Positions 20,005 to 64,000 of a stretch of 64,000 nt of DNA are shown here, in pieces. The stretch covers positions 92,752,001-92,816,000 of the forward strand of contig OZ024745.1 in the NCBI GenBank assembly GCA_964016885.1. The letters run 5' to 3'. The stretch is from Eledone cirrhosa (Eukaryota). The notes beneath the pieces were generated by a model. The model saw only the letters and a program-made list of their open reading frames with translations. It searched no databases and was not told where the DNA came from. Positions within the stretch are counted from its first letter, which is position 1. Each line of letters opens with the position of its first letter. A program made the position numbers and the translations under genes.

Positions 20005-20167
20005 GGTACCCCGGGTTCAATCGGGGGTAACCACAGTAAGTAAGGTACTCAATACATAATAGAGTATAGATATTTAATATAGAGATGGTTTCTACAGGGC
20101 TAGAACTGTTTCATTCAAAGGAAATCATCAGGAAAGCCCTTTCCTGACGATTTCCTTCGAACGAAAC
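20005..20167 (-). mobile_element. Penelope-like pLTR-derived fold-back element
   Basis: Inverted repeat 20107-20167 plus unique tail 20005-20100 homologous to 34760-34845; microsatellite flanks. Confidence 0.7.
20089..20135 (-). ncRNA. Type I hammerhead ribozyme
   Basis: Minus strand: tttc-CTGATGA-tttcctttgaat-GAAACAG-ttctagcc-CTGT-A-gaaa; stem I tttc/gaaa, stem III ACAG/CTGT, GUA triplet. Confidence 0.75.
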
Positions 20168-20662
20168 ATTAAATATATATGTGAGAGAGAGAGAGAGAGA
20201 GGGAGAAAGTGTGTGTGTGTGTGTGTGTGTGTGTGTGTGTGTGTGTGTGTGTGTGTGTGTGTGTGTGTGCGTGTGTGGGCATACACATGACTGTAATTAA
20301 TAAGTATGTTTTGCAGCCACAAGCTCTTCAGTTCTAGCTCCCTGCATGGTACCTTAGCCACGAGTTACCATACAGACTTGGGCTCACCAATGTCTTGTGA
20401 GTGTAACTGGAAACTGTACAAATCCTGCTGTGTATGTGTTTGTCTGTCAGTGTCTCTTGTCACATCACTACTGCAAATGGTAATATTTGTTTACATTAAA
20501 TCTAAACAGAGATCCTGCAGCTCACCGGTTAGGTGTACAAAGATCTGTAACTTAGAAAAGCAAGGTCAGGATCTGGAATAGCATCCAAGCATGTCATGTC
20601 CAACCCTGCCACCATGGAAAAACAGATGTTAAATTGATAATGATGGTGATGATGATATACAT

Positions 20663-21335
20663 ATGTCTTCATCATCACCATCATCATTTAATGGCCATTT
20701 TCCACACTACCATGGGTTAGACGAGCTGTCCCGTTGTGAGATAAGCCAGGTCAGAGGACTGTGTTTTGCTCACACAGAACTGGTTCTGGCTTGGTTTCTA
20801 CAGCTGGATGCCCTTCCTAATGCCAACCACATTTACAGTGAGTACTGGGTGCTTTTTGTCATGATACCTAGAGGACCTCTTTACAGTATGGGCTGGAGAC
20901 TTTTTGTTGTGTCACCTACACAACCTCTTTACAGTGTGGACAGGGTGCTTTTTGTCATGACACCTACATGACAACTTTACTGTGTGGACTGGCCGCCTTT
21001 TGTCCTGATACCTGCACGACCACTTTATAGTGTAGGCTGGATGTTTTTGTCATGACACCTACACGACCACTATATAGTGCGAAGGGCGTTTTTTGTTATG
21101 ACACCTAAATTATCATTTTATAGTGTAGACTCGGTGGGGTGTTTTTTTTTTGTCATGATGCCTACATGACCACTTTACAGTGTAGAACTGGGCGCTTTTT
21201 GTCGTGACACCTATATGACCAGTTTACAGTGTGGACTGGGTGGATTTTTTCATGACACCTACATGACCACTTTATAGTGTGGTCTGGGTTTTTTTCTGTC
21301 ATGACACCTACACAACCACTTTACAGTGTAGACTT
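20663..21335 (-). repeat. RTE-tail-type element with internal 48-bp tandem array (~10 diverged units)
   Basis: ggatgcccttcctaatgccaacc followed by units of gggtgctttttgtcatgacacctacatgaccactttacagtgtggact. Confidence 0.8.
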
Positions 21336-22619
21336 GATTATTCAGTAAGTTATACATATTATAACAAAATGACTAAAACATTATAAGCCCAACAAAGTAT
21401 TACATTACTGTATGTAATTACTCAAAACATTACATAACAGATAGAACTCATTAGAAACAATAACACTTCACTGTTATGGCTAAGTGAAACACAATATTCA
21501 CTAAATTTATTACTATTATTATTATTGTTGTTGTTCCCCCACTCTGTGCACATGGTTTAGAATTGAAGTCAATTAAATTATAAATTCCACATTCAGAAAG
21601 TTGGTCAAAATTAGGTTTGTTATTTGTTCATCAATTTACATAAGATATTTACAGAATGACCTAATTTTTTTATTTATTACCATAATTACATTACAAAGAT
21701 TTGCAACATATGTTTGGGAGGGGGAGAGGACAAACTTTTCAGTTTTCACAATCCAAGTCATTTGTAAATATTTAGACTATGTTAATGGACGAGGGTTTGA
21801 GAGTAAGACCATCTGAAATACAAATGAAGTCCTCAATAATGAAAAAATTATAACAGAAGGTTGATAGTTGATAGCATTAGTTAGGCCATGCAATAAATGA
21901 AGTCTGTCTGAAGCCCAGAGACTCAGCAGGCCAGAGATTATCTCAGTTCCTTTGGTACAAGACTTCCCACTAGAAGTAATGCCACTCTGTCACAGAGTTA
22001 ACTCCCAGCTACAACTTGTGTGCATTTTCATTTCTTTTCAACTGAGTGTACATAATCAACATGAAATGAAGTGTCTTGTTCAAGGATACAATGTGCTACC
22101 CTAAAAAGAGGACAACTTAAATACTATACTGGAAAGGAAATTAGGGAGGTCATTAAGCACTCCTAGATGATAGATGTTTGATAAAGAACACATCAGAAAT
22201 CTATTGACAGTTGAGGGATCATCACCCAAAAGATGTCCCCATGAAGAAAGATTTCAAAAACAACTTTCAATGGAAACCTAATAATCAAGTCTCTTTCAAT
22301 AACATAAAAAGATAACCACTGCTCATATAATGGAACCAGTCTTGTACTTAACCCTTTCATGACCACATTTCTAATGAAATACACTGTTTCAATTAATCGA
22401 TGAAGAATATTGAGGGATTTACTAAAATTATTAATTATTTCATTACTAAGATAGTAACTAAATATAAAGCTTTTATGTAAAATTATGTTGGAAGATTTTA
22501 ATATAAATTAGAAACCTTTAAAATGGGTGGTTTTATTTCATAGAAACACAATCAGTTTTGGCTGTATTGGTAACAAAGGGGTTAAACCTCTCTGACATGC
22601 AATTAAAACACTCACAATC

Positions 22620-22925
22620 TCTGATGACTTTACAATAACACGGCAAAAACTGCAAAAATCTGCTGATTCTACAATCCACAAGCAATACATAGCCCCAATG
22701 GAATATAGCTCCCACATCTAGAACAATGACTGTTGGAACACACACAATCATCCTTGACTAAATCTCAAAGGACATCCATTTGATTGACAAAGATTAATGT
22801 CAACCTTTTTGGAATTACCTTCTCATCCATATTGACTTACTGAACATCGACTGCACTAATCTTCCCAGTCTGGAAGTGTCTGTGAAAGTGATGGTCACTA
22901 ACTGTTCCTCCTCATTAAATCATGT
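22620..22925 (+). mobile_element. Very old CR1/Jockey-type LINE 3' remnant
   Basis: PMEYSSHI-like motif (ccaatggaatatagctcccacatc); otherwise decayed. Confidence 0.4.
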
Positions 22926-60899: not shown

Positions 60900-62342
60900 A
60901 GGTTTTGGCCAGTATTGGCCCAGGCCATGTCTAACTTAATAGCACCACCCTGAAGAACTCCGTCAGCTACAACAATGAGTGTTCAAGTTGATCCAATCAA
61001 CAGAACAGCCTGCTCATGAAATTAATGTGCAAGTGGCTGAGCATTCCACAGACATGCGTACCCTTAATGTAGTTCTCAGGGAGATTTAGCAAAACATAGA
61101 ATGTGACAAGGCTGGGTCTTCGAACTACAGGTACAACTCCTTTTTGTCAGTTGAGTGGACTTAAAATAAAGTGTCTTGTTCATATTCATTAGTGTCTGCA
61201 GTTCTCTTTATATGCAAACACAGGAGCAAGAATGATGGGGTCATTCTACAGACATGGCTTAATAATATTCGAAAAATTCAGATCACATTTATTGTATTCA
61301 GCCATGTAGAGCGATAAAACTATTTGTTAGTTATTTGAATATGACAAAGCCGGCTATTAATTGCTTGTACACATGAAACTGACGGGCCTATCTGCTGATA
61401 TGCAAATCTGGCTGATCAGTGGGTCTGCTAATATGTAGATCGGACAGTCTGCTAACATGCAAATCCGGCTGATCAGTCACTGTATATTTCAGAAAATATA
61501 TATTTTCACTAGCTCTAACAGTTGGCAGGTAAGCAGTGTTTAGTACTGAAGGGTAATCACCCAGAAACATTAGTGTCGCCCATTCTGTTTATATGCCAAC
61601 ACAAGAGCAAGAATGATGGGCTCATTCTATTGACATGGCTTAAAGAGGCTGTTTGCATAATCGAATATTGTTAATATTCGAAAAACTCAGATTACATTTA
61701 TGAGAGAGAGAGAGAGAGAGAGAGAAAGAGAGAGAGAGAAAGAGAGAGAGAGAGAGAGAGAGAGAAAGAGAGAGAGAGAGAAAGAGAGAGAAAGAGAGAG
61801 AGAGAGAAAGAGAGAGAGAGAGAAAGAGAGAGAGAGAGAGTTGTAACTCTTGATGCAGTTGTAGGATGTTAAACCTGGCGGAAACCATCCCTCTCAAGAA
61901 CTAGACACAGCCAATTTCTTCCAGAGAAGAGTAGGAGAGAGGAAGTTAATACTTTTATCGACCTTGAAAGGGTGAAAGGCAAAGTTCACTTTGTTGGGAA
62001 TTGAATAATATAATATATATATAATATATATAATATATATATATTATAATATATATATTATATATATATAAATATATATATATATTATATATATATTATA
62101 TATATTATATATATATTATATATATTATAATATATATATATTATATATATATTATATATATTATAATATATATATATATATATTATAATATATATATATT
62201 ATATATATATTATATATATTATAATATATATATATATATATTATATATATTATAATATATATATATATATTATAATATATATATATATATATATATATTA
62301 AAATAGAAAGATTTGAATGGATACAGTTTAGTTGAAAGGAAT

Positions 62343-62462
62343 TTATTGACACGTGTTTCTATAACAGTTACATAACCTAAAACAGCTGATATCTACAAAC
62401 TTTTAGTTATGCAGACATTCAATATTTCAATGTTATTATTTACTGTCATTTCATCAGAATAA
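62343..62462 (-). ncRNA. Type I hammerhead ribozyme with extended stem II
   Basis: Reverse complement of 63494-63613. Confidence 0.72.
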
Positions 62463-63493
62463 TATTACTGAGGACCTATTTAGTTTTTATAGAGAATATT
62501 AGGAGGGAGGGGTGAAGTTGTTAGAAGAATAGTTGAAGGAGTGGTTTTTCGATAGCAGTGAGTAATTAGATTCCCATCTGTTGTTTTGACATTTTTTATA
62601 GAATATATTATTGGTTATTTTTCTAAATCTATAGAAGGATTAGAGATAGTAAAGATATGCGTGGTTGGTTTTGTGTTTGCACTTAATTAACATTCAGACT
62701 TAAATTTTTCTTTCAAGTGTACGCATACCTTCACCCACGCATTCACACACAAATATATTTGCACACCTCTACAAAATACATATACTCACAATTCACATAT
62801 TCATACTTACATATATATACACATGCATACACATATATATACACACATGTATTCATGTACATACTTACGCGCTCATGTGTATACATTTTCATACTCAACT
62901 TATCTTTATATACACACGTATAGACACACACATATATACATACTTACTCTAGTCCATGTGTACACACATACACATCTATATACACATATATACATACATA
63001 TACATATATATATATATATATATATATATACACATATATATACATATATATATACATATATATATATAAGCACTTTAATACATGAATACACTTACATCTA
63101 ACTATACACATCAAACATATATATATATTTACTTATTTATATACATTTTCACATATATATACATACTTATGGACGTTTTTAGACACATTCATTATCGCAT
63201 ATTTGCACCTATTCTCATCGGCATATCTTTCCATTATTAGTGTGGTAATTTAAGGTTATTAATATATGTTGAGAAGAGATTGTTTTTATATTTTTCTAAC
63301 TAGATTAAGGTTTATATAGTTGGGGGATGTCCCTCTTTTATGTAATATTCGGCTTGTAGATGGGAATCTAATTACTCACTGCCACCAAGAATTCTCACTG
63401 CTATCAAAAAACCACTCCTTCAACTATTCTTCTAACAACTTCACCCCTCCCTCCTAATATTCTCTATAAAAACTAAATAGGTCCTCAGTAATA

Positions 63494-63613
63494 TTATTCT
63501 GATGAAATGACAGTAAATAATAACATTGAAATATTGAATGTCTGCATAACTAAAAGTTTGTAGATAGCAGCTGTTTTAGGTTATGTAACTGTTATAGAAA
63601 CACGTGTCAATAA
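63494..63613 (+). ncRNA. Type I hammerhead ribozyme with 91-nt stem II domain
   Basis: ttatt-CTGATGA-a-atgacagt...actgttat-a-GAAAC-acgt-GTC-aataa(a); stem I ttatt/aataa; palindromic stem III ACACGTGT. Confidence 0.72.
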
Positions 63614-64000
63614 ATTCCTTTCAACTAAACTGTATCCATTCAAATCTTTCTATTTTTCTCCGGATTACTTTTGGAACTACAACTGGAACCGTCGAGCAAA
63701 CTCTACGTGAGCTGATAATCTACTGCGTGTAATATTTATATTACAACACAACGGAAAATACTGTATATATATTAAAATATATATATATATATATATATAT
63801 TAAAATATATATATATATATATATTAAAATATATATATATATATATATATATTAAAATATATATATATATATATATTAAAATATATATATATATATATTA
63901 TAATATATATATATTATATATATTATAATATATATATATTATATATATTAAAATATATATATTATAATATATATATATTATATATATTAAAATATATATA

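Follow-up and report, generated by a model that had tools for sequence, protein, structure and literature searches.

A stretch of 64,000 nucleotides (64 kb) from the genome of Eledone cirrhosa (GenBank assembly GCA_964016885.1, contig OZ024745.1, positions 92,752,001 to 92,816,000 of the forward strand), called the window in the following and numbered from its first letter, carries a set of short elements built of an inverted arm that has no tail, followed by a forward arm with a tail on one side only. Quite probably these are 5′-truncated 3′-end stubs, each consisting of a pseudo-long terminal repeat (pLTR) and its tail, of at least four families of Penelope-like elements (PLEs) that inserted into (TA)n and other alternating microsatellites. 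The layout is real and non-random, and for the most part it is a known structure; a PLE origin we regard as very likely.

A recurring layout in four families

When the microsatellite-masked window was compared with its own reverse strand, the succession of inverted arm, forward arm and tail was recovered at all six main loci: A (20005-20167), B (33830-34456), C (34631-34845), D (38925-39112), E (51886-52077) and F (62300-63775). A first-pass annotation of the window had pointed to this recurring layout and to similar shapes lacking a visible ribozyme at about 45900-46124 and 47107-47310; local inverted arms are indeed present at these two loci (G and H) as well. Within an element the arms agree at 26/30 aligned bases in A, 104/106 in B, 50/56 in C, 56/59 in D, 46/52 in E and 273/275 in F. 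The corresponding divergence, from 0.7% in F and 1.9% in B over 5% in D to 11-13% in A, C and E, suggests different insertion ages, if the arms were identical at the start. The tail is unpaired and measures 68-106 nt at all six loci, that of A being taken to the arm end seen in C.

The annotation had assigned these loci to several unrelated families, which is wrong for two pairs. A (minus strand) and C (plus strand) belong to one family and D and E to another, with none of 500 shuffles reaching either score, and the six loci therefore represent four families. Only these two pairs passed clearly among the 55 pairs of the pairwise alignment test; the pairs labelled E-L (1/500 shuffles) and L-S (2/500) are weak after multiple testing. 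The idea that all families are alignable relatives was consequently dropped, the comparison of A/C with D/E likewise being not significant.

Association with microsatellites

Ten of the 12 ends of the six loci lie at most 10 nt from a TA run of at least 8 nt, compared with 5.7% of all window positions. As a control, only 3 of the 44 ends of 22 other dispersed repeat copies fall within 10 nt of a TA run. The six loci had been picked in the first-pass annotation partly for their TA flanks. A second set, our own selection, comprises 11 local self-inverted elements and excludes mere neighbouring copies of one dispersed repeat; here a TA run stands at an arm end in 8 of 11, the exceptions being G and the elements at 24952-25297 and 43235-43578. 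The TA/TG flanks described earlier are thus borne out for most ends, with the qualification that the tail end of A adjoins (TG)n and not (TA)n and that the short-arm end of G has no TA run. In four of nine elements (B, D, E and H) the last 3-6 nt of the shared arm are themselves alternating TA (background 7%), a terminal overlap that gives a weak hint of microhomology priming.

An abundant family in DNA reads

Family D/E could be followed beyond the window in three DNA runs from one sample, in which contigs were matched to D and its flanks only. The D region matched 12,615, 11,979 and 13,123 contigs in the three runs, with a summed depth of 0.7-2 million over D as against 5-10 over the unique flank. 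Summed depth is not copy number; allowing for overlapping contigs, we infer 10^4-10^5 copies of the family, in line with two copies in 64 kb.

Both ends of the element recur among these copies. Of the depth at the tail end, about 93% (718k of 776k in run X1) extends into the adjoining TA tract, and 80, 82 and 90 contigs in the three runs show the arm end at ~39028-39044 followed by (TA)n, so that the tail-less end is confirmed for further D/E copies. At the centre of D the depth drops to ~0.25 million, and many different junctions occur among the joints listed (15 of 73). These data also bear on the notion that the hairpins arose by chance or in assembly. Repeats abound in the window, and unfiltered lists of inverted repeats consist mostly of simple ones. 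However, the arms survive microsatellite masking, the two arms of an element differ by substitutions and indels, and independent contigs carry the same family with the same ends and fold-back joints. Artefact is refuted for D/E and highly improbable for the set as a whole.

The native sequence upstream of the D centre could be read from variant letters at 38984-38987 and from loose ends behind 38983 (111-125 contigs, agreement ~0.5 over 30 letters). It is not palindromic at the centre, and neither this sequence nor one farther-reaching 34-letter insert contains a CUGANGA box. The abundant family therefore seems to have multiplied while lacking a canonical core, at any rate within ~45 nt of GAAA. 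We had also considered the fold-back centre of D/E as the native long stem II of a hammerhead and rejected this, because other copies have different letters upstream. Two further observations concern the family. Among the 15 listed C>T/G>A variants between D/E copies over 38950-39084, 10 are located at CpG, resembling methylation decay, and one contig joint suggests an occasional tandem arrangement.

Hammerhead cores in the arms

Candidate ribozymes were located with a descriptor of the type I hammerhead that allowed a mismatch at 10.1/11.1 and was set after the sequences had been seen. Core plus stem II matched eight times at five loci (twice each in A, B and F, and at 36495 and 45558). In 200 block shuffles the mean was 0.73 and the maximum 5, and one shuffle reached the five-locus count. 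Complete folds number five at three loci, with a mean of 0.11 and a maximum of 2 in the shuffles, none of which reached three loci. Three of the five core loci fall in arms that cover 3.0% of the window, and the cores always point from the centre outward to the tail. No hammerhead family appears among the Rfam matches listed for the window (150 of 156). Core boxes, three stems and an NUH triplet are complete on paper in both arms of B and in A (minus strand), though not in C, D or E, and they are ambiguous in F and at 36495. The G10.1-C11.1 pair, which is highly conserved in hammerheads (PMC4209133), is replaced by U·U in A/C and B, by C·U at 36495 and by A-U in F.

The best candidate is that of B. 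On the minus strand lie its 96-nt tail (33835..33930), the forward arm (33931..34036; C3 at 34023, GUC triplet, 2-bp stem III, an internal loop in stem I) and an upstream part (34037..34350) that is T-rich on the sense strand, has no Pfam match and apparently belongs to the forward copy. The plus strand holds the tail-less inverted arm (34351..34456; C3 at 34364, predicted cut site after 34402), which begins 13 nt ahead of C3 and runs out in (TA)n. A hairpin-forming word of the B tail (33899-33927) is repeated in the upstream part (34048-34070). In A, the forward copy (20005..20137, minus) consists of a type I hammerhead candidate and a tail of ~80 nt ending in (TG)n. The motif has C3 at 20131, a predicted cut after 20093, U·U at 10.1/11.1, a 4-bp stem III and a GUA triplet. 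The short inverted arm of A (20138..20168, plus), just ~30 nt long, contains core and stem II and stops 2 nt past GAAA, with TA/GA/TG repeats next to it. Its relative C retains intact core letters in the short inverted arm (34633..34694, minus; letters at 34690-34684) with stems I-III broken, while the forward arm and tail (34695..34845, plus) have a mutated core and a 91-nt tail with an expanded C run; the C cores are decayed and fail the descriptor.

Family D/E holds the 3′ half of the motif only, and a 5′ core sought on both strands of D and E was absent. The short inverted arm of D (38925..38983, minus) ends at the tail-less end of the family beside TA repeats. The forward arm and 68-nt tail (38986..39112, plus) contain GAAA (39000-39003), a stem III with palindromic loop and GUC (39020-39022), and the tail has a 10-nt deletion relative to E and many other family copies. 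E (51886..52077, plus) is composed of a short arm (51886-51943), a forward arm (51945-51998) and a tail (51999-52077).

The tail-less inverted arm of F (62300..62579, minus; core at 62457) is 99% identical to the forward arm, and its forward copy (62580..63762, plus) comprises an upstream part with CA/TA repeats (62580-63357), the arm (63358-63656) and the tail (63657-63762). The forward arm has an extra segment of 19 nt, a core at 63499, an ATG at 63507 and a 4-bp stem II; core and stem II are thus present in F without a convincing stem I or cut site, stem III being ambiguous too.

Three other loci lack a complete core. H (47113..47305, plus) has the arm-arm-tail shape between TA runs and no hammerhead core, and it is a probable member of the group; its arm end and tail start resemble those of B by eye, with a pairwise test that is not significant. 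J (23766..24262, plus), absent from the first-pass annotation, shows a TA flank, a 40-nt inverted arm, an internal part, an arm and a tail of ~90 nt and is a possible member. G (45905..46124, unstranded) is a hairpin without core and is left unassigned. The label of ribozyme-bearing elements hence fits B and A/C, the latter with C decayed, is doubtful for F and does not extend to D/E or to G, H and J. Apart from these elements, a solo hammerhead-like motif with core, 5-bp stem II and GAAA lies at 36495-36540 (plus), without an inverted arm and without clear stems I and III.

A motif shared by the tails

The pattern CTCT-N(3-18)-ATYGAGY matches seven times at six places, where 1.3 matches are expected and none of 100 shuffles reaches seven; an 11-letter form matches four times versus 0.06 expected. 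Both counts are inflated, as the patterns were drawn from these same tails. The places are the tails of A, B (33906-33926), C and E and two unlisted sites (14335 and 47010), with the motif just inside the tail. D carries the 11-letter form and fails the longer pattern through a private change. Pairing is possible between the four outer bases of the motif, where B shows an A-U/G-C exchange. We regard a shared recognition stem-loop in the tails as a lead only. When the D/E- and A/C-tail patterns were compared with metagenome and viral contigs, no match was obtained.

Of the two unlisted sites, the region 46900-47080 (plus) is a tail-like element that ends at the TA run left of H and has the shared motif at 47010-47033; near 46936 it contains GAAA followed by a perfect 8-nt palindrome, its upstream box would be a core with swapped G3-C8, and stem I fails to form. 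The short fragment at 14290-14360 (plus) bears the motif just after a TA run.

Comparison with known Penelope-like elements

The assignment to PLEs is read from structure, in that the elements work like PLE ends: they show a head-to-head inverted truncated copy, a tail at one end and an insertion bias towards (TA)n. PLEs have been described with an inverted 5′-truncated copy at the 5′ end, a one-sided tail of 30-40 bp and a (TA)n bias (PMC8557442), and with pLTRs that are inverted head to head and sufficient in trans (PMC3846280). More specifically, the endonuclease-containing PLEs (Penelope/Poseidon, Neptune, Nematis and Naiad; PMC8557442, PMC3846280, PMC8969392) share with our elements the shorter inverted arm placed head to head, the one-end tail, the (TA)n targets and the strong 5′ truncation. 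A hammerhead in the terminal repeat, upstream of the tail, is paralleled by the candidates of B and A/C and doubtfully by that of F, Naiad PLEs without hammerhead also being on record (PMC8557442). F furthermore resembles an anole PLE element in having an ATG directly past the core (PMC11167929). Unlike in the endonuclease PLEs, no remnant of an open reading frame (ORF) was detected in the elements of the window, their tails are longer, and most of them measure 160-220 nt, the forward and the inverted copy both being truncated at the hammerhead.

The minimal type I hammerheads of metazoan PLEs described by Cervera and de la Pena (2014, PMC4209133) show the same type I order and (near-)palindromic stem III/loop 3, and they too occur as motif pairs on opposite strands, 100-700 bp apart. 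They differ in having G-C at 10.1/11.1, where A/C, B and 36495 have U·U or Y·U; in addition, stem III is 4-5 bp in A/C and D/E, and D/E lacks the 5′ core. The Anolis Poseidon element PAc, studied in vitro by Frangieh et al. (2024, PMC11167929), provides a parallel for two fixed 3′ ends bounding the tail, for AT-rich targets and for copies that run across an uncleaved ribozyme. PAc is described as priming without homology, in contrast to the four of nine arm ends that overlap the TA tract here. Animal non-LTR retrozymes (PMC7229834; bioRxiv 10.64898/2026.07.22.740005) are likewise non-coding, carry a type I hammerhead and have been proposed to depend on PLEs. Theirs, however, are head-to-tail tandem repeats of ~300 bp that permit cleavage of dimers, whereas the copies in the window are dispersed head-to-head pairs that offer no dimer cleavage. 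In Octopus vulgaris, 31 recently active PLE families have been reported, in a paper whose accessible text does not contain the word hammerhead (PMC13282606).

Since this architecture has been described before, our finding is mostly one of annotation. The elements depart slightly from the published ones in their longer tails (68-106 nt), in cores that are non-canonical or lacking and perhaps in a signal common to the tails. Short palindromes of this kind are likely to be filed by annotation pipelines as miniature inverted-repeat transposable elements (MITEs), short interspersed elements (SINEs) or unknown repeats.

Several observations weigh against an origin as PLE stubs built at their insertion sites. 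A Pfam search of 16 frames for a PLE reverse transcriptase or GIY-YIG remnant gave no match, and the frame after the ATG of F has no homologue. A 78-position profile, which kept the positions of its first member only, found nothing among 1.84 billion proteins. The F arm and its upstream part were considered as a possible decayed PLE reverse transcriptase, which neither Pfam nor the large protein search supports. The lack of an ORF match is expected for truncated stubs. The tails exceed the published 30-40 bp, and just four of nine arm ends carry a TA run of at least 3 nt. In A/C, B and 36495 a pyrimidine-pyrimidine mismatch occupies 10.1/11.1. The minimum-energy structure is not a hammerhead for any of the motifs taken in isolation, and the probabilities of stems I and III are at most 0.06 even alone. 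Such failure is expected for dimer-type motifs, yet it lends no support. D/E, the family found to be abundant, is without the 5′ catalytic core even in its other copies, and the read evidence covers one sample and one family, with a depth that is no copy number. Finally, arm-to-arm gene conversion could also explain locus-specific letters on both arms. Overall, the earlier description as microsatellite-targeting, non-coding PLE derivatives agrees with the published layout and with the D/E reads, and no PLE protein was found in these searches. Both a non-autonomous family and copies of an autonomous PLE with extreme 5′ truncation would fit the data.

Origin of the mirror arm

We infer a mechanism from what was observed: the layout and the bias towards TA targets, a family of very high abundance, junctions that vary between copies, and letters specific to a locus on both arms. 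In four-arm alignments, five sites group the arms of D/E by locus versus one, at the arm boundary, that groups them by arm; for A/C the numbers are two and none. Had the whole hairpin been amplified as one piece, left arms should share their variants with other left arms. As the variants group by locus and the junctions vary, an arm built per insertion is favoured, and the mirror arm was probably made at each insertion.

The same data speak to non-autonomous hairpins of fixed structure, either MITE or foldback DNA transposons at TA or SINE-like elements, in which the hammerhead words would be incidental. In their favour, the fold-back points of D and E lie only a few bases apart, H has TA at both arm ends, and the window contains other tail-less inverted-repeat elements (43235-43578 and 24952-25297). 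Such elements would nevertheless be hard to reconcile with one-sided tails, with variants that follow the locus and not the arm and with the variable centre junctions, nor would they account for complete hammerhead folds above all 200 shuffles or for a TA association that other dispersed repeats lack (3/44 ends). Symmetric terminal inverted repeats and a fixed structure were not found, and a target duplication is unreadable inside a TA tract. We consider this explanation quite unlikely for the set, while for G and H a MITE or foldback nature may apply.

Given a PLE origin, we lean slightly towards a two-primer route. A PLE reverse transcriptase-endonuclease acting in cis or in trans would copy the stub, nick both strands of a TA tract and prime two complementary DNAs (cDNAs). 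The first would start at the far end of the tail and yield the forward copy with its tail. The second would start at a fixed internal site, the 5′ edge of the tail, often with 3-6 nt of TA microhomology, and yield the tail-less inverted arm. Both cDNAs would usually halt within the hammerhead region or shortly upstream of it, before being joined head to head. Because the copies cross the predicted cut site, the template would be uncleaved RNA, and the hammerhead would travel as a passenger in the stubs. A PLE protein has been reported to nick and extend both strands of AT-rich DNA and to start at two RNA sites bounding the tail, and PLE ribozyme mutants insert normally (PMC11167929); if each site gave rise to a cDNA, with priming on opposite strands and a head-to-head joint, the layout seen here would result.

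An alternative within the PLE framework is that the arm arises from snap-back self-priming at a palindrome, maybe on an antisense template, or that later gene conversion homogenises the arms. Self-priming from palindromes has been favoured for inverted junctions (PMC3846280), the centres of A (6+2+6) and B (5+2+5) are palindromic, and locus-specific letters on both arms fit this view too. On the other hand, the native sequence upstream of the D centre is not palindromic, and snap-back alone leaves unexplained the fixed internal arm end at (TA)n found in 80-90 contigs per run, which two start sites explain. We hold this alternative to be possible, if somewhat doubtful, and retain the two-primer route as our working model.

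How PLE inverted arms are made has been listed as unresolved (PMC8557442), and a literature search on Penelope and twin priming, which left out subscription papers, returned nothing on the subject. If such tiny insertions number in the tens of thousands, their two fixed 3′ ends and differing junctions would allow a direct genomic test of the origin of the inverted arm.

Other repeats in the window

The remaining repeats are of various types. At 24952-25297 a near-perfect hairpin of ~140 bp is split at a TTAA. The sequence that splits it is one copy of a ~210-bp repeat, abundant in the window and bounded by short terminal inverted repeats, which we take to be piggyBac-like and which has other copies near 2555, 3604, 4148, 17640, 31996, 37345 and 53542. 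The element at 43235-43578 has 27-bp terminal inverted repeats, no tail and no TA run and is MITE-like. An RTE-like reverse-transcriptase frame with an internal PHD-like finger occupies 56333-57673 (plus), with fragments at 5942-6622, 8405-9289 and 60373-60759. It has many relatives at ~50% identity, its named matches (49-72%) being from Hydractinia, Branchiostoma and one label of a bacterial metagenome-assembled genome, with no cephalopod among them. A Tc1-like transposase remnant (7323-8112, plus) and a second reverse-transcriptase fragment (50825-51340, plus) were also found. Two tandem arrays complete the picture, a near-perfect 24-bp array of ~1.85 kb at 58301-60150 and, at 28230-30890, a ~65-bp array in which a 31-bp unit alternates with CA/TA spacers.

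Possible effects in host RNA

The first-pass annotation had further proposed that, if the window is an intron, the elements place self-cleaving motifs in precursor mRNA (pre-mRNA), that their stems could be ADAR substrates in a lineage with extensive A-to-I editing, and that arm-arm pairing would compete with ribozyme folding. Such competition is supported by folding computations. In whole elements A, B and F the pairing probability of the hammerhead helices is 0.00, whereas for the motif alone stem II reaches 0.47-0.70 in A and B, F remaining at 0 even then. Folding energies range from -63 to -615 kcal/mol for whole elements, whereas the motif by itself reaches -12 to -15 kcal/mol. Whichever strand is transcribed, the antisense arm would be made ahead of the sense motif, and there is one sense motif only, so that the in-cis dimer fold is unavailable. 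Minimal PLE hammerheads have been found inactive as monomers and weak as dimers (PMC4209133). With the antisense arm first, zero helix probability and inactive monomers, self-cleavage of pre-mRNA by the stubs is unlikely, and the computed arm pairing argues against that part of the proposal.

A combination of active ribozymes and editable stems in host pre-mRNA, with RNA switching between arm pairing and the ribozyme fold, may still be envisaged. The cores of B and A are complete on paper, three stems being predicted in each, and B, D and F supply 852 of 1011 bases (84%) of the local stems of at least 40 bp and at least 90% identity. Self-palindromic repeats are heavily edited in frog, and loci forming double-stranded RNA (dsRNA) are exceptionally dense in octopus (PMC5625713). 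The order of the arms and the folding results nonetheless stand against active ribozymes. As for the host transcript, a search of 150 of the 164 frames revealed no recognisable host exon, although short exons would escape it; seven of the 150 matched Pfam, five as transposon-type and two below the cutoff, and the 14 frames excluded by a size limit mostly overlap others. No tRNA genes were found in the window. We judge the combination quite improbable.

The predicted stems themselves are real candidates for dsRNA. The octopus was left out of the repeat-annotation analysis of the editing study (PMC5625713). That high-copy PLE stubs are the main source of near-perfect intramolecular dsRNA and of the hyper-editing signal in an octopus-like genome is a bold and rather unlikely proposition. 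If it held, the mirror arm built at insertion would make each copy a ready-made long hairpin on both strands. This arrangement would also keep the ribozyme inactive when host transcripts read through it, so that introns could tolerate the stubs. On the same view, the spread of a family of ~10^4-10^5 copies lacking a 5′ hammerhead core would suggest that the enzyme recognises a stem-loop common to the tails and not cleavage. Provided that they are transcribed in a coleoid cephalopod, the stubs would offer a concrete candidate source of dsRNA and hyper-editing.

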